Below are positions 7,091 through 46,135 of a DNA stretch of 64,000 nt, piece by piece. Within the stretch, counting starts at the first letter, position 1, and each line of letters starts with the position of its first letter. A program made the position numbers and the translations under genes. Under the pieces are notes generated by a model. That model was not told the DNA's origin and ran no database searches. It worked only from the letters and a program-made list of their open reading frames with translations. Source of the DNA: a virus (Duplodnaviria > Heunggongvirae > Uroviricota > Caudoviricetes); the IMG/VR virus record IMGVR_UViG_2861079508_000001. One strand, written 5' to 3'.

Positions 7091-7145
7091 CCTGCTTCCG
7101 TATATATTTAATAAGTTACTTATTATTTATATATACAGAAGCAGG
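7091..7145. repeat. 55-bp near-perfect palindrome, copy 1
   Basis: CCTGCTTCCGTATATATTTAATAAGTTACTTATTATTTATATATACAGAAGCAGG; identical copy at 41241-41295; centre AATAAGTTACTTATT is itself palindromic and motif-2-like. Confidence 0.6.
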
Positions 7146-7256: not shown

Positions 7257-8024
7257 ATGGACGATTTATCGGTATACGCGAGATCATTGGATAAGGCTAA
7301 ATACTATGTTTACTGTCTCTATGATACAGAAGACAAGATGAAAAGACCGTTTTACATAGGAAAAGGCAAATCGACTCGTTGTCTCGATCACATCAAGTAT
7401 CCCGATGACTCTCCCAAATCCATGCGGATCAAAGAACTTTTGGCTAATAAAAAATTAGGCATAGATATACTTCGTCATGGTATGGATGAAACCACAGCCA
7501 AACTTGTTGAGGCGACATGCATCGACCTTATGGGGGTCGGAGAGCTTACGAATAAGGTACGAGGAAGTGGTTCCATGATGGGCAGAATATCACTGGACGC
7601 CTACCATCACTTAGTGCTGCAAGAGGAAACTGAAATTGCTCCTGAGCACGCCGGTCTTGCCTTCCTGCTAAACAGCACCTACAAGTCAGGAATGTCCGCT
7701 CTGGCATTATATGAGGCTACGCGTGGCGTATGGGCAAAGGTTCCAAGAGACGAGAATCTCAAATATGCCTACGCTACATATGGTGGGCTGATAATGGAAG
7801 TTTATCAGATTGAATGCTGGGTCAAAGCCGGTTCTCAGCAGTACTTTACAAGGGATATAGCTCTTGGCCCCGACACAAAACGTTATGAATTTGTTGGCAG
7901 AATAGCCGATGAGCATATTAGAAAACTGTATGTAGGCAAATTAATCAAGAAGCCACCAAGCTACGGTAGCCCTTTTGTGAAGGTTGGGGTGGTTAGGACT
8001 GAACATAGTGTTAGCGCGGCATAA
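7257..8024 (+). CDS. GIY-YIG family nuclease (possible homing endonuclease)
   Basis: N-terminal VYCLYD-x9-YIGKG-x5-R...H matches the GIY-x(9-11)-YIG motif; gene is inverted relative to all neighbours and preceded by a large non-coding region. Confidence 0.5.
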   Translation: MDDLSVYARSLDKAKYYVYCLYDTEDKMKRPFYIGKGKSTRCLDHIKYPDDSPKSMRIKELLANKKLGIDILRHGMDETTAKLVEATCIDLMGVGELTNKVRGSGSMMGRISLDAYHHLVLQEETEIAPEHAGLAFLLNSTYKSGMSALALYEATRGVWAKVPRDENLKYAYATYGGLIMEVYQIECWVKAGSQQYFTRDIALGPDTKRYEFVGRIADEHIRKLYVGKLIKKPPSYGSPFVKVGVVRTEHSVSAA

Positions 8025-8076: not shown

Positions 8077-8436
8077 TTAACCTTTCTTCATCAACTCTCG
8101 TTTGATTTCATCGGTACGCATCGTGACATCGGCAGCGGTGATCGCCTCATTCAATTTCACGATGTCCTCGATTTCCTGCGGTGACTTCTCTGCCAGATGG
8201 AAAATGGCTGCTCGAATCACGTCAGAACGAGTGAACTTCTCGAAGCGAGGGATGAACTTCATCATCTCCAGCAGTTCGAAGTATTCGTCCTCCAGTGACA
8301 TTGTGCGGCTTTTAATTTTCTCTTTGCCACGAGTCGGGCGTCCCTGTGGTCTGACTGGTTGGCGCAAAGGAGTTGTGTTCTTAGCCGGTGCATCAGGCTC
8401 TTTGCGCTTTGCTAGGTCACCCATTTTCATGGACAT
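8077..8436 (-). CDS. small partition partner protein (ParG/RHH-like), putative
   Basis: 119-aa protein with basic N-terminal tail and a C-terminal segment (FTRSDVIRAAIFHL) compatible with ribbon-helix-helix; directly downstream of ParA with start/stop overlap at 8436. Confidence 0.4.
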   Translation of the reverse strand: MSMKMGDLAKRKEPDAPAKNTTPLRQPVRPQGRPTRGKEKIKSRTMSLEDEYFELLEMMKFIPRFEKFTRSDVIRAAIFHLAEKSPQEIEDIVKLNEAITAADVTMRTDEIKRELMKKG

Positions 8437-9104
8437 TATTCTTCTTCCTCCAGACTCAACAGATAATCTACAAATTCTTCAAACTCGGCTTCCGCCTTTT
8501 TGTCGCGCTCGCTACCGGTCATTTCAAAGATAGAACGACCAGACTCTTCCGCATCATCATAGACGTTGCGGTTATATAGATTGACTGGCGCAGACTCGAT
8601 GCCAAACGTCTCAACAATCTCTTTAGCCGCCAGAATGCGAGACACTTGTGATGGCAAAGCCGGGCACTGGTTCATGACCGCGCGGACCTTCACTTTATCG
8701 TTTACATTACGAACATTGTCGATAATAGGATCGATGTCACGCAGAGATTTCAAATCACGACGCTTAGGACGAAGCGGGATAATGATAACGTCGGCCATCA
8801 GCATCGCTTGTCGCTGAATTTCGGAGTCAAAGCCACCAGCATCTACCACTACATACTCAGCTCTACCCTGAAGCGATTTTAGGTGCTTAATGATGTCATC
8901 CTGAACGTATGCAAAAGGAATCAGCTCAAGGTCTTCGTTCTGTCGACGGTCTTCACACCAGCTCGTTGTCGTGCGCTGAATATCTATATCGGTGATATAA
9001 ACCTTCTTCTTCTTTTTGACTTTCAGGCAAACGGCAATTTGCTGGGCAACGGTGGATTTGCCAGGCCCGCCCTTTGTGCCGCCAACCACAAAGATCTTGG
9101 TCAT
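8436..9104 (-). CDS. ParA/MinD-family partition ATPase
   Basis: Deviant Walker A GGTKGGPGKST at N-terminus; 222 aa. Confidence 0.7.
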   Translation of the reverse strand: MTKIFVVGGTKGGPGKSTVAQQIAVCLKVKKKKKVYITDIDIQRTTTSWCEDRRQNEDLELIPFAYVQDDIIKHLKSLQGRAEYVVVDAGGFDSEIQRQAMLMADVIIIPLRPKRRDLKSLRDIDPIIDNVRNVNDKVKVRAVMNQCPALPSQVSRILAAKEIVETFGIESAPVNLYNRNVYDDAEESGRSIFEMTGSERDKKAEAEFEEFVDYLLSLEEEE

Positions 9105-37633: not shown

Positions 37634-39208
37634 TCACTCGTTCTCTTGAGTAGATGAGTCCCCATTCCCTCGGGGTTGATCTTGCCCGCTTTCTTGGGCT
37701 GCACCACGATCATAAGTAAGTACTGACTTATTTTCAAGGGTATTTAGATCATTTTTTGGCGGAAAATTCAAGAGATCTTTATCAAATTCCTTTTTCATCG
37801 CCTCAGTAATGTTCGGGAAAATCTTCTCAATAAGCATTTCCATCTGGTGACGACGTACAGAGTCCGGTGCCTGAAGTAATGACAGTTTCTCGGCAACAGA
37901 AAATTCATCTGTAAGGCCACGAATATCGAAACTTTCTGGATACGCAATTAAAGAGTGGTCTTCGTCCAGATCTACCCCCATCCATTTCGCAACCAGTAGC
38001 ATGATTTGGCGTTCAGCCCTTTCCAGACGCTCTGCTTTTGTGACAAGCAAGCTATTTACACGCTGGAAGTCATACATTTTTGCGGCACCAGATGAGTTAT
38101 CAATTCCCTGTGCGTTGTCCTGCTTCGTTCGCTCACCAGCGACACCAACTGAATGGTAGATTTCGTTAATCACCGTCTTAATCGTAGTGATGATCATCTG
38201 AGCTTGTTTCGGGTCTGGTGACAAATAAAACGGCTGGTTTCCACCTTCAGAATCGTAGGTGAAGACTCGCTTTGTGCCCATTTCAAGCACTTTAGTGTGG
38301 TTTTCATCACCAGGTAAAAGCGACTGTACTGGTATAGCCAACTGGCTAAATGTCTGATCCTGAATAATGGCATCAAGGTTTGACAGATAGTTTGCAACCG
38401 CACGATCAAGATAAGCGATATCATCGATCAACGATGGGCTGAAATACGGTGATTCACTTTCTCCAATACAATCAACAGGAAACACAGGAACTACGCTGAG
38501 ATTATGCTCACCGCTATCCTCTAAAATAACTTTTGCCTGACGGCGACCTGCTCCACCAGCGCCCTTCTTCACTTCCTCACGGAACAGATACCACTCGTTT
38601 TGTGTCCACAGACGATAACGTTGGTATTCCTGACCTGTAGAAGTAAAAGGATCTGCGTCATCACGAGCGACTTCCACAATTAACGCCCACAACATATTCC
38701 CGTCGTCGTCCCATGCCACATCCAGCATTTGCTGAGGTGAAATCCAGTAGGCGTAGGCGCGAGCATCTTTCTTTTTCTCGTCAGCTACTGACTCAACATC
38801 ACCACTCATCGTGCTATCGACAACAACCCATATGCGACCGTAAATAGACGACTGCAAATCAATAGCGGCCATAAATGAGTCAATAGAGGCATTCTGGCGA
38901 GTCGCACGTTTCCAGAAATTGCGGATCTGCTCTGGTGCCTCTTCGATATTTCTATGAATGTCTTCTTTAAAGAGATATTTGTTGATGAGGTTTACCACCT
39001 CACGAGTGTGGTTGAAGCGATAAGCACGCTCAACTCGCTCCTTAAACTCCTGATCTCCCTCTTTAAAGTAACGAAAGATATTGTCTGTAAACCAACCACG
39101 CCCGCCAGCGTAAGTGCTGGCGAGGAAGTCCCAATGTTCTTTTTTCTTTTCGTATTCCGGGTGGCGTCGCGCCACCAGATCCTTAATTTGTTTGTCGTTC
39201 AATTCCAT
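37634..39208 (-). CDS. portal protein
   Basis: 524 aa directly downstream of terminase large subunit; acidic C-terminus. Confidence 0.6.
   Translation of the reverse strand: MELNDKQIKDLVARRHPEYEKKKEHWDFLASTYAGGRGWFTDNIFRYFKEGDQEFKERVERAYRFNHTREVVNLINKYLFKEDIHRNIEEAPEQIRNFWKRATRQNASIDSFMAAIDLQSSIYGRIWVVVDSTMSGDVESVADEKKKDARAYAYWISPQQMLDVAWDDDGNMLWALIVEVARDDADPFTSTGQEYQRYRLWTQNEWYLFREEVKKGAGGAGRRQAKVILEDSGEHNLSVVPVFPVDCIGESESPYFSPSLIDDIAYLDRAVANYLSNLDAIIQDQTFSQLAIPVQSLLPGDENHTKVLEMGTKRVFTYDSEGGNQPFYLSPDPKQAQMIITTIKTVINEIYHSVGVAGERTKQDNAQGIDNSSGAAKMYDFQRVNSLLVTKAERLERAERQIMLLVAKWMGVDLDEDHSLIAYPESFDIRGLTDEFSVAEKLSLLQAPDSVRRHQMEMLIEKIFPNITEAMKKEFDKDLLNFPPKNDLNTLENKSVLTYDRGAAQESGQDQPRGNGDSSTQENE
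37711..37735 (-). promoter_or_regulatory. motif 2 element (inside 3' end of portal ORF)
   Basis: CATAAGTAAGTACTGACTTATTTTC upstream of scaffold gene. Confidence 0.4.
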
Positions 39209-39242: not shown

Positions 39243-40491
39243 AACCACCAAGAATAACACGGTTTTTGACTGGATACCTACGATGTACTGGATAGCCCAA
39301 TGCGTCTGCACTATGCTCAATGCCACCTGTCTTATCCATATCTCGTGTTCCAGGCTTGTAGATGACTTTTTCCAGTGAATCAATCAAATGCTTGCACTTC
39401 GGATCGATATACAACCGGATATCTCCAGATGCGGTCATCAGCATTCGGTTAACAGCATTAACACGATCCGCAATTGGCGGGTGCTTTTTCGAATAATCGA
39501 CACGTAAGAATCCCTTCTCTTTGAATATGTCGACGTCAGACTCCCCGCGAGCATGTTGGCGATAAGCACCTGCCGGATCTGGAAATACCGTTATCTGTGA
39601 TTTCCAGCGCCAGAAGCGTCTCTCAAGCTCATCACAAACCTCTGCCGTGTTAGAGGAAAAGAGCACCAATTCATCAATTGCCCATAGCTCACCATTTGGC
39701 TGAGGTTGCAAAATTACTGAAGACATCGGGTCAATGTTGAAGTCCTGCCCTACCCATATAGGCAACCGAGGGTTGAACTGAAGCGGTTTTACATGCACGT
39801 TACGATCGAACGGGTAGTAAACGCGCCCGGACATGTTCTCAAAGCTCGCCAGGTACTCCTGAGCGAACGATTTCGGGTCCATATCGTTCTTAGCAGCTTC
39901 AATTTCCGCCGTAGGCACAAACGGAGAATCGGCAGTTACAAACTGCCAGCTCTTCCACTGTCCCTTTCTTTGCAGCTCTACGTTCTGGCCTATAGTCCAC
40001 AGTTTGTGAAATTCCGAGAAACCTTTTGGCGTACCAATGATAAGTGCACCGCCGCGTGTCGATGAAAGAGTAGGTCGTAACACCTTGTACCAGGTGTCAG
40101 CCTTCATATCCTGAAATTCATCAAGCACTACAAAATGCAACGCTACGCCGCGCAGAGTGTCAGGCTTATCAGCACCTTTGAGGGCGATCTCCGAACCGTT
40201 CTTCAACACGATTGTCATCGTGGTGTCGTTCTTTTTCCTAACCCACTTACGAGGCAGAACTTCCTGTAGATCGTCCCACAAAATCTGGCGAGCCATCTGG
40301 TAAGTAGGAGCGACATACCAGACCCTTTGCTTTTTTTCCTTTGCCGCCGCACGAATAATAGTGGAGATCGACAACCGGGATTTTCCCCAGCGTCGACCAG
40401 CACAAACAACTTTAAATCGATGCGGAGACTGGAAGACTTTCATCTGTCCAGAATGCAGTTGCACAAGACTGAGCGAGGACGGGATTGCCAT
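39235..40491 (-). CDS. terminase large subunit
   Basis: Walker A VVCAGRRWGKS and Walker B FVVLDEFQD in N-terminal ATPase domain; C-terminal nuclease-like half. Confidence 0.8.
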   Translation of the reverse strand: MAIPSSLSLVQLHSGQMKVFQSPHRFKVVCAGRRWGKSRLSISTIIRAAAKEKKQRVWYVAPTYQMARQILWDDLQEVLPRKWVRKKNDTTMTIVLKNGSEIALKGADKPDTLRGVALHFVVLDEFQDMKADTWYKVLRPTLSSTRGGALIIGTPKGFSEFHKLWTIGQNVELQRKGQWKSWQFVTADSPFVPTAEIEAAKNDMDPKSFAQEYLASFENMSGRVYYPFDRNVHVKPLQFNPRLPIWVGQDFNIDPMSSVILQPQPNGELWAIDELVLFSSNTAEVCDELERRFWRWKSQITVFPDPAGAYRQHARGESDVDIFKEKGFLRVDYSKKHPPIADRVNAVNRMLMTASGDIRLYIDPKCKHLIDSLEKVIYKPGTRDMDKTGGIEHSADALGYPVHRRYPVKNRVILGGSR

Positions 40492-41123
40492 TATTCGTCC
40501 TCCCCTTCACTTCCATCATCTGTCGCATCAAATTCGCTTAGAGCTTCTTCTTCCAACGTCTCAAGCAATTCGTCATCGATGATTTCAGGCTCGTCGTCTT
40601 CCTGACGTAATTTCGCCACCTGGGAAGGCGTAAGCTCACCAAATACCAGGTTCGGAATTTCTTCCTCGTCATTTTCCGCATGATCCATGCCCAATGCTTT
40701 GGACGAAACTTCAAAGCATTTTGCAAGGGTATTACTGGCTCTCTGTAAGCTCTTGAGAGAATCCTCAATCGCCCCTAAAGGCTTACCCTCACGTTTGGCC
40801 GTAGTGACTTCGACCATCACCATCTGCCCCAACGCATACGCCCAGCCGTCATAACGTGTACGACGTTCTTCTATCTTTTCCGCACGGGCTTTAGCGCGAA
40901 GCTCTGCGTCAGATTTAAGAGACTCACGAACCATCTTCCCAACAGAGTCCGCGCCTTTCTCTAATCCTCGCTTTTTGAAATGTCTGGAGAGTGTTTCACG
41001 ACGAATGCCGTACTCTTCCTCCAGCTTTGAGAGTGTATATTCGCCTGACGTCCATTTGGCTTCAGCTTCGGCCCACTCCGCTGGTGTCAGGCGAGTTTTT
41101 ACCTCGTCTTTTTCGACCGTCAT
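40491..41123 (-). CDS. terminase small subunit (putative)
   Basis: 210 aa with N-terminal HTH-like YTLSKLEEEYGIRRETLSRHFKKRG and acidic C-terminal tail; stop overlaps TerL start. Confidence 0.5.
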   Translation of the reverse strand: MTVEKDEVKTRLTPAEWAEAEAKWTSGEYTLSKLEEEYGIRRETLSRHFKKRGLEKGADSVGKMVRESLKSDAELRAKARAEKIEERRTRYDGWAYALGQMVMVEVTTAKREGKPLGAIEDSLKSLQRASNTLAKCFEVSSKALGMDHAENDEEEIPNLVFGELTPSQVAKLRQEDDEPEIIDDELLETLEEEALSEFDATDDGSEGEDE

Positions 41124-41163: not shown

Positions 41164-41204
41164 AAACAACTTGTTTACTGCATTTTCTAACCAACTTGTT
41201 TTCT
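41164..41204. promoter_or_regulatory. two motif 1 copies (AAACAACTTGTTTA; CCAACTTGTTTTCT)
   Basis: In the intergenic region upstream of the small terminase gene and downstream of the wHTH gene. Confidence 0.45.
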
Positions 41205-41240
41205 GGGTTGTTTAATTAGGTCTGGGCATGTCTTATTAAG

Positions 41241-41295
41241 CCTGCTTCCGTATATATTTAATAAGTTACTTATTATTTATATATACAGAAGCAGG
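41241..41295. repeat. 55-bp near-perfect palindrome, copy 2
   Basis: Identical to 7091-7145; lies in the non-coding region just upstream of the small terminase gene. Confidence 0.6.
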
Positions 41296-41319
41296 TCTTT
41301 AAATAAGCTCCCAGACCGA

Positions 41320-41586
41320 TTACATCACCAGTAACTTCGCTTTGGCTCGACCTAAAGTGGTTAACCCAAGAGTTCGGCGGTGATAGCGATTGTCACTGCG
41401 TTGGCGCGTATGCCCTTTCTCCACAAGCCCCTTTTTTATCAGAGCGCGAATTGAGAACTGGATACTTTGCTTGGTTGTCTTGTACGGCAAAACTTCAAGC
41501 AATTCGTCCAGATCAAGTAGATAACCTCGCTCATAACCGAGATTGAGCGTTTTGATGATGTCCTTTTGTTTATCGGTTAACGTCAT
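41320..41586 (-). CDS. small winged-helix DNA-binding protein
   Basis: 88 aa; wHTH-like segment (QSIQFSIRALIKKGLVEK); adjacent to two operator-like motif-1 copies. Confidence 0.4.
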   Translation of the reverse strand: MTLTDKQKDIIKTLNLGYERGYLLDLDELLEVLPYKTTKQSIQFSIRALIKKGLVEKGHTRQRSDNRYHRRTLGLTTLGRAKAKLLVM

Positions 41587-41595
41587 GGCAAATCC

Positions 41596-42486
41596 TTATG
41601 CCGGTAAAGCAATTTCTAACGGTTTATCCAAAGGTTGTTTGTCGAATGCCAGCAGTGGCAGCGTGTCAGGCAGTCGACGACCAAAGTCAGGGTTTCGATA
41701 CACCCCATACAACGGAGACGTAAAGCTCAGGTTGTGAATGTCCTTGAGCAACTTCACAATGCAGGCCTCGTCCACCAGACTGTCGGCAATGTCCTGAATC
41801 GTCGTGCCACGATTCCGCCCAGCTTTTGCCAGGGAACTGTTCTTGTGGTAGTCCGCCACCAGATCACGCAGTGCACGGCGACGACGAGACTCGCTCATTG
41901 CGAACAACTCTTTGACGATCGCCTCGTTATCACCCGGGTCGGAACGGAAATGGCGCTGGAATACACGCAGTGCACTTTCATAGCTCTTCGGTCGCTCAGG
42001 GCGGATGAACTTAAACCCTGCTTTCATGGCGAAGGGATTGTATTTGCTCATCGAGGACTGGATCTCAATGATTGGCCGGTCATGCATCCTGCTAACCAGG
42101 TTAATCATTCGATAAGAGACGCCTACGCCACGATACTGAGTATCCACAACTGAGCGACTGATCACCGCAAAGTTGTTATTCACGTACCGACCCCAGTACT
42201 GGTTAGCCACGGTGGTATTAGTGGTTGGTTTCAACTTAGGAAACATGCGGTGGCGAGGTGCCAACAGTAGTTTCGGGTAAGCCATAACCACGACGCCCAC
42301 CAGACGGTCATCAAGTTCGCAGCGATAGTAAGTTGGCGCGAAAGGTTTGCCGTCTGTTTTGTAGTGAAGCGACTTAAGAGCGTGCCAGTCCTCTACAGTT
42401 CCCTTTGTAACAGTCATTCGCTCCAGAAAGTCCAGATGACGCGGAAACTCTTCAGGGCGGTAGCGTTTAATGATGATGTCCGTCAT
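41596..42486 (-). CDS. GNAT-like acyltransferase-fold protein (function unknown)
   Basis: Segment VVDTQYRGVGVSYRMINLV...NPFAMKAGFKF resembles GNAT acetyl-CoA binding motifs A/B; 296 aa with long extensions; 4-bp overlap with upstream gene. Confidence 0.4.
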   Translation of the reverse strand: MTDIIIKRYRPEEFPRHLDFLERMTVTKGTVEDWHALKSLHYKTDGKPFAPTYYRCELDDRLVGVVVMAYPKLLLAPRHRMFPKLKPTTNTTVANQYWGRYVNNNFAVISRSVVDTQYRGVGVSYRMINLVSRMHDRPIIEIQSSMSKYNPFAMKAGFKFIRPERPKSYESALRVFQRHFRSDPGDNEAIVKELFAMSESRRRRALRDLVADYHKNSSLAKAGRNRGTTIQDIADSLVDEACIVKLLKDIHNLSFTSPLYGVYRNPDFGRRLPDTLPLLAFDKQPLDKPLEIALPA

Positions 42487-43148
42487 GAATGGACCTCATC
42501 GTGACTACCATTGTGATATTCCACCTTCACGCGTTCTTTGTAGTGCTTGGTGATCTGCATATCCGGGCGCAGCGCGTTCTTCAGGTCTTCGTGAGTCGTC
42601 GCCACCATTACCGTCGCACCAACCTTTCGAGCGGCACGCTGGAGGTTAGACGCCACAACCTGAGCGGTTACACGGTCGAGAACAGCGCCGAACTCGTCAG
42701 CAGCCCACACTTTAGCGCCTGACTCAATCAGTTTGGCAATCTTGAGACGATATTTCTGGCCGTCTGACATTTCAGAAGGCTTGCGAACAAACAGATATGC
42801 ATCGTTCAGACCAGCCATAGATAACAACCCAAGCGCATCACTGGTCGTTTTGCCCAACTGATCGATGACGTTAACCTCATTATCGAAGGTAAAATCATCG
42901 ATGGAGGCTACAGACAGCCCTTCATCCTTCATCTGTCGTTGCAACTCGCGCAGCACAACGGATTTGCCGGAACCGGATTGGCCGGTGATGTACACCACAT
43001 CGCCCTGCTTCACTTCCAGCTCCAGATTGTCGTAAAGCGTCCACTCTTTTTCGTCCAGGCCAAGCCCGAACGACTCAGCGATTTCCAACGTGCGCGTGGT
43101 TTTATTTACGCGTGTCTGAAACGATACGTTGATGATGTATTTGCTCAT
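42483..43148 (-). CDS. soluble ABC-type ATPase
   Basis: Walker A GQSGSGKS, ABC signature MSDGQKYRL, Walker B VWAADEF, H-loop TTHED; no transmembrane domain. Confidence 0.6.
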   Translation of the reverse strand: MSKYIINVSFQTRVNKTTRTLEIAESFGLGLDEKEWTLYDNLELEVKQGDVVYITGQSGSGKSVVLRELQRQMKDEGLSVASIDDFTFDNEVNVIDQLGKTTSDALGLLSMAGLNDAYLFVRKPSEMSDGQKYRLKIAKLIESGAKVWAADEFGAVLDRVTAQVVASNLQRAARKVGATVMVATTHEDLKNALRPDMQITKHYKERVKVEYHNGSHDEVHS

Positions 43149-43813
43149 GCAGCCATCTCCCCGGAAGAGATCTTCTCCGCATATGCCACAAATGCGTCTA
43201 CCCCGCTTTCTCCCGTCATTTCTTCCATGTGGGCAAGCAAATCACCAACAACAATGGCAGAGCCAGCAGGGAGCGTTTTAAAGCCCAATACGTCGACAAC
43301 ACGTACTTCTTCCGCTGCAACTTCACGACTGATCTCGGTGTGTTCATCCTTCTGTCGTTTAGTTTCTTCGCCAAGATCGATAACTAGCGAGTCGGTGTCC
43401 ATTTCTTCTGTCATACTGCCAACGAGAACATTCAACTCACGCTCTTCAAAGCCGAAAACCTCGATATCGTCCAGAACAAGCGACTCAAGCTCTTTCTGTA
43501 GCTTAATTGCATCGTAATCAATGCTGGCAAGTCGGTTATCTTCAAGGCGCTTCGCACGAACCTCGTCATCACTGAGATCATCGCGAACAATAACCGGTAC
43601 GCGCTCAAGTCCAGCAAAAATTGCAGCCTCACGGCGGCCGTGGCCAGTAATAATTACGTCGTTCTTATCGACCGTAATTGGCTGGTCAAATCCGCGCTTT
43701 TTAATGGCTGCGGCTAGATCTCGGATCTGCTGTTCATCATGCTTTTTGGCATTCATCTCATAGGGAATAAGATCTGCCGGGTCGCGATATACGATTTCAA
43801 ACTTTTTGGTCAT
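43145..43813 (-). CDS. ParB-like nuclease-domain protein
   Basis: ITGHGRREAA motif (ParB/Srx box); start set at ATG overlapping upstream stop (TAATG). Confidence 0.55.
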   Translation of the reverse strand: MTKKFEIVYRDPADLIPYEMNAKKHDEQQIRDLAAAIKKRGFDQPITVDKNDVIITGHGRREAAIFAGLERVPVIVRDDLSDDEVRAKRLEDNRLASIDYDAIKLQKELESLVLDDIEVFGFEERELNVLVGSMTEEMDTDSLVIDLGEETKRQKDEHTEISREVAAEEVRVVDVLGFKTLPAGSAIVVGDLLAHMEEMTGESGVDAFVAYAEKISSGEMAA

Positions 43814-44493
43814 TACATACGCTCCTTGTAGTAGTCGACCAGCCACACCAGAGCCTCACCAGCGTTCTCCATTTCATTACCGGTGTTAATAGCCTGCTCT
43901 TTGATGATGTTTTTTATGGTTTCTGCAACACGATCTGACGCATCGAAAGTTACTTTGAAGCGCATGGTCTGATGTTCCGCACCCACACGTTCGGTTTTCT
44001 CTCGTTTGTCGGTATCGACAGGCTCATCACTACCACGAGACAACGCCTCCAGTGCTTCAAGGTCGATTGCCGCCTCTTTTGCTAAAACCATCGAGATTTC
44101 GTCGTCATACGGGGCGATTTCAGACAGTTGATAGTCAAGTTCTGACTGAATTTCTTCAATGAAGCGTTGCAATGCGATTTGGTCGTCTTCACCGTATCGC
44201 TCGTTGTCCACCAGTGACATCTGTTTAGCTACGACATCGCTAATTTTGCCCACAGAAAGCACCGGAACCGTTGAAATTCCTTGCTCAATAGCAGCACGCC
44301 AGCGATGTTCGCCGCCGAGGATTTCAAAAAATCCATCTTCAAGTTCACGAGCCAAAATTGGCTTAAAAAAGCCCAATTTTTCGATAGAACCTTTCAGTTT
44401 TTCAAAATTCTGCGCACCAACCGAATTGGTGTTCCAGGTATTCGGGCGAAGGTTGGCAACATCAACCTGCAAAATCGTGATTTTTACATCCAT
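43813..44493 (-). CDS. ParB-like nuclease-domain protein
   Basis: LRPNTWNTN and ILGGEHRWRAA motifs (ParB N-terminal domain boxes); start set at first ATG. Confidence 0.6.
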   Translation of the reverse strand: MDVKITILQVDVANLRPNTWNTNSVGAQNFEKLKGSIEKLGFFKPILARELEDGFFEILGGEHRWRAAIEQGISTVPVLSVGKISDVVAKQMSLVDNERYGEDDQIALQRFIEEIQSELDYQLSEIAPYDDEISMVLAKEAAIDLEALEALSRGSDEPVDTDKREKTERVGAEHQTMRFKVTFDASDRVAETIKNIIKEQAINTGNEMENAGEALVWLVDYYKERM

Positions 44494-44507
44494 TTTATTG
44501 CTACAAT

Positions 44508-44536
44508 ACACTAAGTAACCACTTACTTATTATAAT
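44508..44536. promoter_or_regulatory. motif 2 element in divergent intergenic region
   Basis: ACACTAAGTAACCACTTACTTATTATAAT between ParB-like gene start and helicase gene. Confidence 0.45.
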
Positions 44537-44575
44537 AGCCAAATAACATACAAAAGGCACTAAGGAAAGAGGTTT

Positions 44576-46135
44576 ATGACTGTTCGGATTGTATCTAACG
44601 CAGTAAATGCGCTTATTTCTGGCGCAGATGACAAGGTAAAGCAACTGGTGCAGCAAATGTTGAGCTACGAAGTCGAGACTGGCGACTGGAAGGGCACAAG
44701 CACGATGTTCAACTGGAGTAAAAACTCGTTCCCTGCTGGCTTTGCCAAGCCTGTAGCGGCGAACTTGAACAAGGCGGGCATCAAATGTGTTCATATCCGC
44801 AAAGACAAAGCCCCGGCGCTTGGTAAACCAAATCCGGCGGTTAACCCATTCCCATACAATCCTGATTATGCGTATCAGGATCAGACTGTGGAAACACTGG
44901 TTCGAGAGGGAATGATGATTGCGCAGATCGCTACTGGTGGCGGGAAATCTAACGTTGCCTGCAAAGCAGCTGCACGTATCGGTCGAATGACATTATTTTT
45001 AACAACCCGCTCTGTTCTGATGTTTCAAATGGCCGAAAACTTCCAGAGATCCATCGACTACCGCGCCGAAAATGGCGAACCGTGGTTAAAAGACCAAAAG
45101 GTTGGAGTCATTGGCTCGGGTGAGTTCCAGGTATCACGACATATCAACGTCGCTACAGTTCAAACTCTTGCAAGTTTCCTCGAAGAACCACCACGCGATG
45201 CAACACCAGATAAGAAAAGCTACCACCTCAAACGTCGGGAGTTGGTGAAACGCTTCCTTTCAAGTGTCTCTCTTCTTATTCTGGAAGAGGCGCATGAGTC
45301 TTCAGGCTCAAATTTCTATGACATCGCCAGATTATGTGTGAACGCAGACTATCGTCTGGCGCTTACAGCCACGCCGTTCATGAAGGATTCGACGGAAGCC
45401 AACATGCGCCTGATGGCGGTGGCCGGGCGAATTGAAATTAAAGTCACAGAAAAGTACCTGATTGATCGAGGCATTCTGGCAAAGCCGTACTTCCTTTATC
45501 ATAAAGTTGCCTACAAGCCAGACGAGGCCAGAATCAAGGCCGAACTTGCCAACAAACACCTCAATTTTAGAGTTGGTATGAGCACCGCCTACCAAAAGGC
45601 TTATCAGTTGGGGATCGTGTATAATTTGGGACGTAACGAGGCCATTGTTCGCGAAGCATTGCTCTATAAGCAACATTCTCTCAATTGTATGACTCTGGTT
45701 CGTCTTAAACGCCACGGGCAAATCCTGATGGAAATGATGAAAGAGTCCGGCCTTAGAGTTGACTTCATCTATGGGGAATCTAACCAGGCGACAAGGCAAG
45801 CAAAGCTGAACAGTTTAGCGTCTGGAGAAATAGATGTTTTAATAGGCTCGACTATTCTGGATGTCGGTGTTGATGTGCCAAGCGTTGGTGCGGTCATTCT
45901 TGCTGGTGGTGGGAAAGCAGAAGTTGAAATGAGGCAGCGTGTCGGTCGTGGCTTACGAGCCAAAAAAAATCAGGCAAACGTGTGTTTTATCACTGATTTC
46001 ATTGACATTAGCAACAAATACCTGTTGTCTCACTCTTATGAGCGAAAACACATCATCGACACCACACCTGGCTTTGCAGAAGGTGTATTGCCTATTGATG
46101 GAGCATTCGATTTTGGAGTTCTGAAACGAGATTAG
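44576..46135 (+). CDS. superfamily-2 DNA/RNA helicase
   Basis: Motif I ATGGGKS, motif II LEEAHE, motif III LTATP, motif VI QRVGRGLR; 519 aa; RBS AAGGAAAGAGG upstream. Confidence 0.7.
   Translation: MTVRIVSNAVNALISGADDKVKQLVQQMLSYEVETGDWKGTSTMFNWSKNSFPAGFAKPVAANLNKAGIKCVHIRKDKAPALGKPNPAVNPFPYNPDYAYQDQTVETLVREGMMIAQIATGGGKSNVACKAAARIGRMTLFLTTRSVLMFQMAENFQRSIDYRAENGEPWLKDQKVGVIGSGEFQVSRHINVATVQTLASFLEEPPRDATPDKKSYHLKRRELVKRFLSSVSLLILEEAHESSGSNFYDIARLCVNADYRLALTATPFMKDSTEANMRLMAVAGRIEIKVTEKYLIDRGILAKPYFLYHKVAYKPDEARIKAELANKHLNFRVGMSTAYQKAYQLGIVYNLGRNEAIVREALLYKQHSLNCMTLVRLKRHGQILMEMMKESGLRVDFIYGESNQATRQAKLNSLASGEIDVLIGSTILDVGVDVPSVGAVILAGGGKAEVEMRQRVGRGLRAKKNQANVCFITDFIDISNKYLLSHSYERKHIIDTTPGFAEGVLPIDGAFDFGVLKRD

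Follow-up and report, generated by a model that had tools for sequence, protein, structure and literature searches.

A ParB, ABC ATPase and GNAT-like gene set conserved upstream of the terminase genes of an SSU5-type phage-plasmid, and its possible role in DNA modification

What could two ParB-like proteins, an ABC ATPase, a GNAT-like protein and a small basic protein be doing together just upstream of the terminase genes of a phage, and do they form one system at all? The question is raised by positions 41320-44493 of a 64,000-nucleotide stretch of Caudoviricetes DNA (IMG/VR virus record IMGVR_UViG_2861079508_000001; this whole stretch is called the window below), which nucleotide matches identify as an SSU5-type Escherichia coli phage-plasmid, and in which a first, model-made reading of the letters (the original prediction) had seen an unrecognised module. 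The five genes turn out to be a co-translated and conserved unit that is homologous to proteins in which ParB, ABC and GNAT parts are joined in a single chain. What such an enzyme would act upon, and by which chemistry, is a matter of interpretation, and the reading we favour, while holding it at slightly less than an even chance, is that of a ParB-coupled, ATP-driven acyltransferase which would modify, between replication and packaging, phage DNA or else a target bound to DNA. The genes in question, listed in the order of their coding strand, are:

43813..44493, minus strand: ParB1, 226 aa, a ParB/Srx N-terminal domain and an acidic helical C-terminal half
43145..43813, minus strand: ParB2, 222 aa, an N-terminal ParB/Srx domain with the box GHGRREA, then acidic helices
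42483..43148, minus strand: ABC ATPase, 221 aa, soluble, of the transporter nucleotide-binding domain type
41596..42486, minus strand: GNAT-fold protein, 296 aa, the GNAT fold being residues 1 to ~165, with a helical C-terminal domain
41320..41586, minus strand: small basic protein, 88 aa, probably a winged-helix DNA binder

All five are co-oriented in the window's open reading frames (ORFs) and leave next to no room between them: the stop codon of ParB1 and the ATG of ParB2 share one base (TAATG), the start of the ABC gene overlaps the end of ParB2 by ATGA, the start of the 296-aa GNAT gene overlaps the end of the ABC gene in the same way, and the 88-aa gene is preceded by a 9-nt gap with a Shine-Dalgarno-like AAGGA, after which 196 non-coding nucleotides separate it from the terS-like gene. 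Such start/stop overlaps indicate translational coupling of the module genes, and every structural detail of the packing described in the original prediction is borne out by the ORFs.

The ABC protein matches PF00005 (E 5.8e-13) with a complete cassette (GQSGSGKS, SDGQ, VWAADE and THED), these positions being invariant in its fused relatives, and the ABC halves of ABC-GNAT fusions from Bathyarchaeia, Nitrososphaeria and Planctomycetota are found with it at phmmer E-values of 1e-61 to 1e-41, an N-terminal motif, FxT..T.R...AESFGLG.DE, being common to both. Judged by its sequence, it is the counterpart of the N-terminal half of the ABC-GNAT fusion family. No membrane-protein or permease gene is seen among the window ORFs of the operon, in agreement with what had been claimed, and the name “ABC transporter”, under which the gene runs in PHROG and GenBank, was rejected because of this lack of a permease and because the relatives are fused to GNAT domains; the module is not a transporter.

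The 296-aa protein is more elusive, as it had no match in Pfam, NCBIfam, PADLOC and PDB sequence searches, and its GNAT fold was revealed solely by structure prediction. Over 31 homologues (down to 41% identity), R119 and G122 of GNAT motif A (R119-x-x-G122-x-S/A/G) are invariant and a motif B-like NPFAxKAGF stretch (N150/A153/A156-G157-F158) is conserved, motif A being present in the ABC-GNAT fusions, too, as R..G.G. The protein is basic (isoelectric point, pI, 9.8) and is related to the fusions at E 1e-17 to 1e-11. The acyl-CoA-binding motif noticed at the outset was thus a sound lead: as far as predicted fold and conserved motifs tell, this is a GNAT acyltransferase-like protein and the counterpart of the C-terminal half of the ABC-GNAT fusions. 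The 88-aa protein (pI 10.1) belongs to phrog_900 (E 2e-44), its winged-helix family matches being weak, and a gene of 78-113 codons is always found 3' of the GNAT gene in relatives.

The proteins in which these parts form one chain are what links these parts together and connects them with DNA. A profile of the 296-aa family, run against 1.84 billion representative proteins, retrieved 885 relatives, the commonest of the distant ones being ~450-500 aa long with an ABC cassette at the N-terminal and a GNAT-like domain at the C-terminal end, which matches the gene order of the window. Four triple fusions (P0199, P0218, P0221 and P0224) consist of ParB, a Zn-ribbon-like CPxC motif, ABC and GNAT, so that their domain order is that of ParB2-ABC-GNAT in the window. 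Other members reach into replication: a single 1,300-codon ORF (L193:2989-6891, IMG/VR contig 3300009529_001106) reads ABC-GNAT-UDG superfamily-3'-5' exonuclease-PolA, PolB is joined to ABC-GNAT in two representative proteins, a DnaA-like domain precedes ABC-GNAT at the N-terminus of another, one ABC-GNAT fusion ends in a TFIIB-like DNA-binding repeat, and at one locus (L172) the fusion gene has a RecJ-like gene on one side and DnaE on the other. Taken together, these fusions argue that ParB, ABC and GNAT form one DNA-linked machine. The annotation name used by JGI and for phage Cyrano is [quoted passage not shown]. The view that these families do not normally travel together is not supported, since ParB-ABC-GNAT and ABC-GNAT exist as single polypeptides and ParB (with or without ABC and GNAT) directly upstream of terL recurs in many viral lineages. 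As an observation on the side, the ABC cassette of one relative (P0162) carries an intein with a LAGLIDADG domain.

Is the gene set, then, inherited as a set? Escherichia phage Cyrano shares 99.3% identity with the 3.2-kb stretch, and Salmonella phage SSU5 85%; among PLSDB plasmids there are 771 matches, from hosts that include Klebsiella, Escherichia, Enterobacter, Yersinia and Salmonella, 718 of the 771 holding at least 80% of the stretch in one piece, and 247 of the 5,426 complete E. coli genomes (4.6%) have it, in every case on a plasmid. The five proteins are full-length members of PHROG families 723, 930, 293, 886 and 900. Farther away, an Ectothiorhodospira contig, a 3.3-Mb metagenomic contig and a marine contig (L002, L003 and L004) keep the order of a divergent helicase gene, ParB, ParB, ABC, zero to three small inserts, GNAT, a small gene, a gap, a terS-like gene, terL, portal, DUF6651 and capsid, and so do Pseudomonas phage nickie and Rhizobium phage RHEph10, the helicase lying upstream in all the distant relatives examined and the small gene keeping its place in each of these five. 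Identity of the distant relatives to the window is 55-59% for ABC, 56-62% for TerL, 48-55% for portal, 40-47% for GNAT, 29-43% for ParB1 and ParB2 and 28-35% for TerS, ABC being conserved about as much as TerL, and the ParB proteins and the small winged-helix protein changing at the rate of TerS. It follows from this pattern and the fixed order that the module behaves as a vertically inherited core gene set and not as a mobile accessory island. The set is thus conserved as a unit across PLSDB plasmids and distant phages, which is what the original prediction had asked to be looked for, and its genes are no chance neighbours of ordinary, separately inherited kinds; the flavour of a defence or anti-defence island that had been lent to them did not survive, given the vertical core inheritance, the TerL-like conservation of ABC and the PHROG families and COG-style name that already exist.

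The small variable genes between ABC and GNAT, which are present in most relatives and absent there in the window, include ones for Phage_gp49_66, RyR-domain and DUF2829 proteins, and were seen in SSU5 (L169, 3812-4066), nickie (L170, 5646-5981), L003 (7705-7995), RHEph10, L002 and L004. The ABC/GNAT junction therefore appears to be a tolerated insertion point, and such occasional inserts imply that translational coupling is not obligatory and gene order is. A few kb beyond the divergent helicase, a dCMP deaminase gene was noticed in L002 (1108-1569) and L003 (2695-3183), L002 having a radical-SAM gene as well; this is possibly a nucleotide-metabolism context relevant to DNA modification.

On its other side the module faces the packaging genes, and the wider surroundings in the window are these:

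40491..41123, minus strand: terS-like gene (phrog_867), called terminase small subunit in phage Cyrano
39235..40491, minus strand: terL, with PF03237 and PF17289 matches
37634..39208: portal gene, downstream of terL
44576..46135, plus strand: gene for a UvsW/XPB-like SF2 helicase (PF04851, PF00270 and PF00271), divergent from ParB1

This closeness to the terminase was seen outside the SSU5-like phages, too, in searches of differing reach. A first IMG/VR scan returned only near-identical SSU5-like loci, and a genome-contig scan with the fusion alignment and a Walker A pattern returned 80 loci, mostly unrelated ABC proteins, of which L087-L095 were informative; in a Nitrososphaeria provirus the fusion gene has portal, capsid and TerL genes for neighbours. 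Within a single large clade of ABC-GNAT fusions from IMG/VR, TerL (PF03237) stands directly upstream in 44 of 79 loci, 76 of the 80 loci of this clade falling into one 60%-identity cluster by single linkage. A further IMG/VR scan, seeded only on the ParB-subfamily motif, gave 35 loci, and the gene after ParB was classified as ABC in 21 of them (a short or fused GNAT being recognised in 16), as a C5 DNA methylase (PF00145) in seven, as an N6/N4 DNA methylase (PF01555) fused to ParB itself in five, as a radical-SAM-like gene in one, and was left unassigned in one. In 23 of the 35, TerL is recognised on the same strand no more than six genes downstream, with portal usually next; at L252, TerL and portal come immediately after the gene of a 666-aa ParB-ABC-GNAT protein, and at L275 and L270 ParB-ABC abuts TerL without a separate terS-sized gene. 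The window, likewise, has a ParB gene homologous to methylase-linked ParBs directly upstream of terS/terL. Considering both this homology and the 35-locus pattern, ABC-GNAT fills the slot of DNA-modifying enzymes in a ParB-X-terminase arrangement.

The homology just mentioned is that of ParB2 to the N-terminal module of phage ParB-methyltransferases (phrog_498, E 1e-31; PADLOC MTase_II, PDLC03229, E 3e-17), ParB2 being homologous to the ParB part of the ParB-ABC-GNAT fusions as well. Both ParB proteins exceed the Pfam cut-off for ParB_N (PF02195; E 3.2e-13 for ParB1), so the two ParB/Srx-type N-terminal domains read from the letters are real, and both have an intact GxxRxxA (CTP-binding) box, GEHRWRA in ParB1 and GHGRREA in ParB2. 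Are they, then, the partition proteins as which they are annotated? ParB1 is a full-length phrog_723 match (E 1e-78) that aligns convincingly with Spo0J only to about residue 105, and no helix-turn-helix (HTH) is detectable in it by sequence. The AlphaFold model of ParB2 (predicted local distance difference test score, pLDDT, 82) superposes on PadC, KorB, Spo0J, sulfiredoxin and pNOB8 ParB-N, KorB and PadC being the best matches, over its first ~100 residues, the rest being acidic helices, and fold comparison found no HTH or centromere-binding domain beyond the ParB/Srx part. The two proteins have a pI of ~4.5 (4.55 for ParB1, and 4.28 for its C-terminal half). By analogy, they may be protein adaptors like PadC rather than DNA clamps. 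As regards a canonical ParABS system, the N-terminal ParB/Srx domain is present, and a central HTH and a cognate ParA alongside are lacking: the ParA of the window is encoded at 8436-9104, 34 kb from the module, with its own 119-aa gene downstream, the two being read from their sequences as a ParA/ParG-like pair of type Ib. Among phages that carry the module, the nickie-like ones and those of Stenotrophomonas and Xanthomonas gave no tblastn match at E<=1e-3 to this ParA type, the only one sought, and the module always lies by the terminase and never by parA. A partition function was thus rightly doubted at the outset, and is here largely rejected on account of the missing HTH, the separate ParA and the fusion of ParB to enzymes in relatives. 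Another role considered for the ParB proteins, that of a ParB-like nuclease for cos cutting (compare the HNH proteins of HK97-like phages), was set aside, as no evidence for a nuclease motif came up and TerL has an RNaseH-like nuclease domain of its own (a weak PF17289 match).

If the proteins are to reach DNA close to the packaging site, the non-coding sequences flanking the module deserve attention, one of which, a conserved palindrome between the module and terS, had been missed in the original prediction:

41219..41317: imperfect palindrome, ~100 nt long and AT-rich at its centre, separating the module from terS
44494..44575, minus strand: control region upstream of ParB1, common to the divergent helicase gene

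Palindromes of 80-140 nt are found at the same place as the first of these in L002, L003, L004 and RHEph10, nickie having only a short one. In the window it has a 53-nt core, CTGCTTCTGTATATATAAATAATAAGTAACTTATTAAATATATACGGAAGCAG, at 41242-41294, of which an identical copy in the same orientation lies 34 kb away at 7092-7144, between a 249-aa ORF and a GIY-YIG-like ORF and near DnaB-like and ParA genes, and several copies of the 53-nt palindrome occur in related phages. For both SSU5 and Cyrano, the linear GenBank record has its two ends within the palindrome (window junction ~41257/41258), which, from the sequence, is compatible with a candidate cos/pac site at 41219-41317 and is not proof of one; the repetition of the core at 7092-7144 suggests that it may serve for protein binding and not be the actual place of cleavage. 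The 53-nt palindrome could, accordingly, be an origin, a cos or a protein-loading site; an intrinsic terminator was rejected, there being no T-tract after it.

The region upstream of ParB1 has a TATAAT element and then a palindrome, AAGTAACCACTTACTT, at 44513-44528, a pattern expected 0.02 times by chance. An 11-mer, ATAATAAGTAA, has three exact minus-strand copies, one in the 44513-44533 region, overlapping AAGTAACCACTTACTT, and the other two (41266-41276 and 7116-7126) at the centres of both 53-nt palindromes; with one mismatch allowed there are seven sites against 0.9 expected, and the 11-mer may act as a half-site at which a common protein binds, or as a promoter element. A different 13-bp palindrome, AAACAANTTGTTT, has 15 sites in the window at no more than one mismatch (6210, 9140, 41164, 41189, 50307, 51071, 51973, 52458, 53642, 54957, 55008, 58631, 61539, 62253 and 62982), against 0.5 expected, mostly at promoter-like positions just upstream of genes, which include parA, the DnaB-like gene and terS. 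By analogy with P1 C1 or RK2 KorA/KorB, this set looks like the operators of a global phage-plasmid repressor. Two copies lie at 41164..41201, between the large palindrome and terS, and none was found in 44494..44575 upstream of ParB1, which suggests that the module and the terS-structural genes are separately regulated.

How would such an enzyme work? Under the reading favoured here, ParB1 and ParB2, as NTP-binding ParB/Srx adaptors, would join the ABC, GNAT and winged-helix proteins in one multi-subunit, nucleotide-driven enzyme, with the ATPase and the GNAT protein forming the catalytic core and the ParB domains, the small winged-helix protein and possibly the adjacent palindrome guiding this core to the phage DNA close to the site of packaging. 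The GNAT protein would then transfer an acyl group onto DNA bases, by Mom-like or TmcA-like logic (a DNA-bound target would be less likely), and DNA entering the capsids would thereby be marked or protected, making ABC-GNAT a functional counterpart of the DNA methyltransferases that are paired with ParB upstream of terL in other viruses. A bolder form of this idea, which we put forward only tentatively and regard as rather unlikely in its entirety, would have it that this is a new viral DNA modification: an ATP-dependent acylation (e.g., acetylation) of bases by the ABC-ATPase/GNAT pair, delivered by ParB/Srx and winged-helix proteins at the palindromic site beside cos/pac so that only capsid-bound DNA is marked, by an enzyme family which, in viruses of bacteria and of archaea alike, is either coupled to terminases or joined to DNA polymerases by fusion.

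A good deal weighs against base modification. No literature report of modified SSU5-type virion DNA was found, and these genomes are routinely sequenced without comment; the core-like conservation, with ABC at about the level of TerL, is what one would sooner expect of essential genes for morphogenesis or packaging than of anti-restriction genes, which are usually patchy; and the samples of 35 and 80 loci are phylogenetically clustered, so that their counts are not counts of independent events. Most GNATs acetylate proteins or small molecules. Phage Mu Mom (PDB 8bv8) is among the best structural matches of the GNAT protein in the fold search and the top viral one, by small margins, so the structural preference for Mom over ordinary GNATs, itself drawn from a predicted model, is marginal. 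That the ParB proteins load on DNA is, moreover, a weak idea, given the strong acidity of ParB1 and ParB2, in neither of which an HTH or other DNA-binding domain is seen.

Some of these points would suit an accessory of packaging, i.e., a complex that aids the terminase instead of modifying DNA, whether by remodelling the cos/pac palindrome, by clearing or acetylating nucleoid proteins, polyamines or the terminase/portal, or by coupling replication intermediates to packaging, with ATP driving assembly or turnover. The invariant place upstream of the palindrome and terS/terL in the SSU5-like clade speaks for it, as do the TerL genes directly upstream of ABC-GNAT in the 79-locus clade, the ParB-ABC(-GNAT) genes running straight into TerL at L252, L275 and L270, and the rates of change, with ABC at that of TerL and the ParB and winged-helix proteins at that of TerS, as expected of core catalytic and specificity subunits of one process. 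It would leave unexplained, however, why ABC-GNAT is fused to PolA, PolB and a DnaA-like domain with no terminase nearby, and why DNA methyltransferases fill the same ParB slot elsewhere; a terS-like gene is, besides, already present in the window, and no terminase system is known to require an acetyltransferase. We consider it unlikely, though it is the main rival. If, on the other hand, ABC-GNAT acylated a free nucleotide or a modified-base precursor before polymerisation, its fusion or adjacency to replicative polymerases would be accounted for, together with the genes for dCMP deaminase and radical-SAM proteins that L002 and L003 have in the neighbourhood of the module; its occurrence with ParB and terminase and the polymer-level methyltransferases in the same slot point to action on the polymer, however, and no hydroxymethylase/kinase set typical of hypermodification was seen next to the module, so that a nucleotide-pool enzyme is hardly to be expected.

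The remaining readings take the module away from the virion DNA. In one, which seems improbable to us, the GNAT protein would acetylate a host protein or a small-molecule signal in the service of anti-defence or host takeover, with ParB and ABC as regulators or adaptors; GNATs often have proteins and small molecules as targets, phage GNAT anti-CRISPRs exist (AcrVA5 acetylates Cas12a), and the module, lying outside the AAACAANTTGTTT operators, could follow another expression schedule than the structural genes. Yet no PADLOC system matches, the genes are core genes inherited vertically in a fixed place, the fusion partners are DNA polymerases and DNA-binding domains, and the module is conserved in hosts ranging from archaea to Enterobacteria, whose defence targets are not the same. 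The other is the current annotation, i.e., maintenance of the plasmid-prophage, or KorB-like long-range silencing, by two ParBs, for which one could cite the ParB_N domain with an intact GxxRxxA box in both proteins, the KorB and PadC matches of ParB2, the multi-copy palindromes in the genome and the two ParB genes called partition genes in related Acinetobacter phage-plasmids (Pfeifer et al. 2021, PMC7969092). With no HTH, a ParA pair 34 kb away, the module present in phages in which this ParA type was not detected and sited by the terminase, never by parA, and ParB fused to ABC-GNAT or methyltransferases in other viruses, we find it very improbable. The module is, in short, probably neither a partition nor a defence system, and of the functions initially proposed, DNA modification and a packaging-associated role are favoured by the comparative evidence, while defence and anti-defence are not. 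The statement that no known defence system fits has stood up: in PADLOC-DB 2.0, the ABC protein drew only generic P-loop matches (mad3/mad8, PtuA and BrxD), the ParB proteins matched the ParB part of MTase_II and the GNAT protein matched nothing, and a known defence system was rejected, as nothing in PADLOC was specific.

How does the module compare with what is already described? The nearest parallel is that of the phage ParB-DNA methyltransferases, which have in common with it the ~150-residue N-terminal module, the slot upstream of terS/terL and the logic of ParB plus a DNA-acting enzyme, whereas the window has no methyltransferase domain, an ABC plus GNAT partner instead, two ParB paralogues and an additional winged-helix protein. 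Of the ABC-GNAT fusion family, which goes by a COG2401/MK0520-type name (what ties it to COG2401 is the naming in the sources and the direct homology with fused proteins), the window has both halves in the same order and with the same motifs, split, however, into two overlapping genes and placed in an operon with two ParBs and a winged-helix gene. Mom of phage Mu is a GNAT-fold enzyme that makes N6-carbamoylmethyl-adenine in DNA; the likeness to it lies in the predicted fold only, and Mom works without an ABC ATPase or ParB partner. TmcA/NAT10 is an ATPase-coupled GNAT that acetylates cytidine N4 in RNA and requires NTP hydrolysis, and the likeness is one of architectural logic, a P-loop NTPase joined to a GNAT; its ATPase is helicase-like, its substrate is RNA, and the homology shown is that of the GNAT fold alone, the PF13718 match on one mini-GNAT (L258) reaching only E 0.007. 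With the ParB-CTPase family (ParB/Spo0J, KorB, Noc and PadC), the window ParBs have the N-terminal fold and the GxxRxxA box in common, and differ in having no HTH/centromere-binding domain, an acidic C-terminal half and no adjacent parA. ParB-like proteins also accompany DNA-modification enzymes in the shape of DndB, DpdB and IbrB (the latter with the PAPS-reductase-like IbrA), so that a ParB/Srx protein encoded beside a DNA-altering enzyme is a likeness, although the enzymes and the chemistry differ and the window proteins drew only generic P-loop or helicase matches from Dnd/Dpd/Ibr-type models.

The theme of a ParB-coupled, DNA-acting enzyme module beside the terminase is thus a known one, in which an ABC-ATPase/GNAT pair here replaces the methyltransferase. 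The existence of the genes is not new either, as they are annotated in hundreds of records; no description was found of the functional unit or of the association of ParB-ABC-GNAT with the terminase, and in the full-text literature searched, neither the module nor COG2401 was found to have been characterised, nor was any account of DNA modification found for SSU5-like, nickie-like or RHEph10-like phages. This matters because the SSU5-type phage-plasmids in which the module is common are clinically relevant, as carriers of resistance genes and as candidates for phage therapy, and five of their core genes are currently annotated as “partition proteins”, “ABC transporter” or “hypothetical”. Were DNA modification to prove true, it would bring a new chemistry of phage genome protection and a new role for ParB/Srx domains; were it a terminase accessory, a new class of component in the packaging machinery of a large viral clade; and, either way, the orphan ABC ATPase-acetyltransferase family of archaea and their viruses would gain a function-bearing context.

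Several observations made along the way stand by themselves. In ~30 of the 80 IMG/VR contigs of the ABC-GNAT clade (L174-L251), ABC-GNAT is the last gene, the contig ending exactly at its stop codon in 21, and in eight of the 35 loci of the ParB-seeded scan the ParB/ABC gene starts no more than 120 nt from the contig start; behind this may be either true genome termini lying between ABC-GNAT and ParB or the trimming of proviruses at gene boundaries, and since such trimming could give the same pattern, the ends at the ABC-GNAT stop were not counted as evidence for termini. Adjoining the second copy of the 53-nt palindrome, a 255-aa ORF (7257-8024, plus strand) has an N-terminal GIY-YIG-like motif, YVYCLYD...PFYIGKGK...R..H, recognised by eye, and may be a homing-endonuclease-like gene. 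Lastly, the near-identical phage-plasmid pSJC33-2 (NZ_CP080257.1; L006, 33811-37102) carries, ~10-14 kb from the module, a full-length metG (methionine-tRNA ligase) and apbC, i.e., host-type housekeeping genes on a phage-plasmid.

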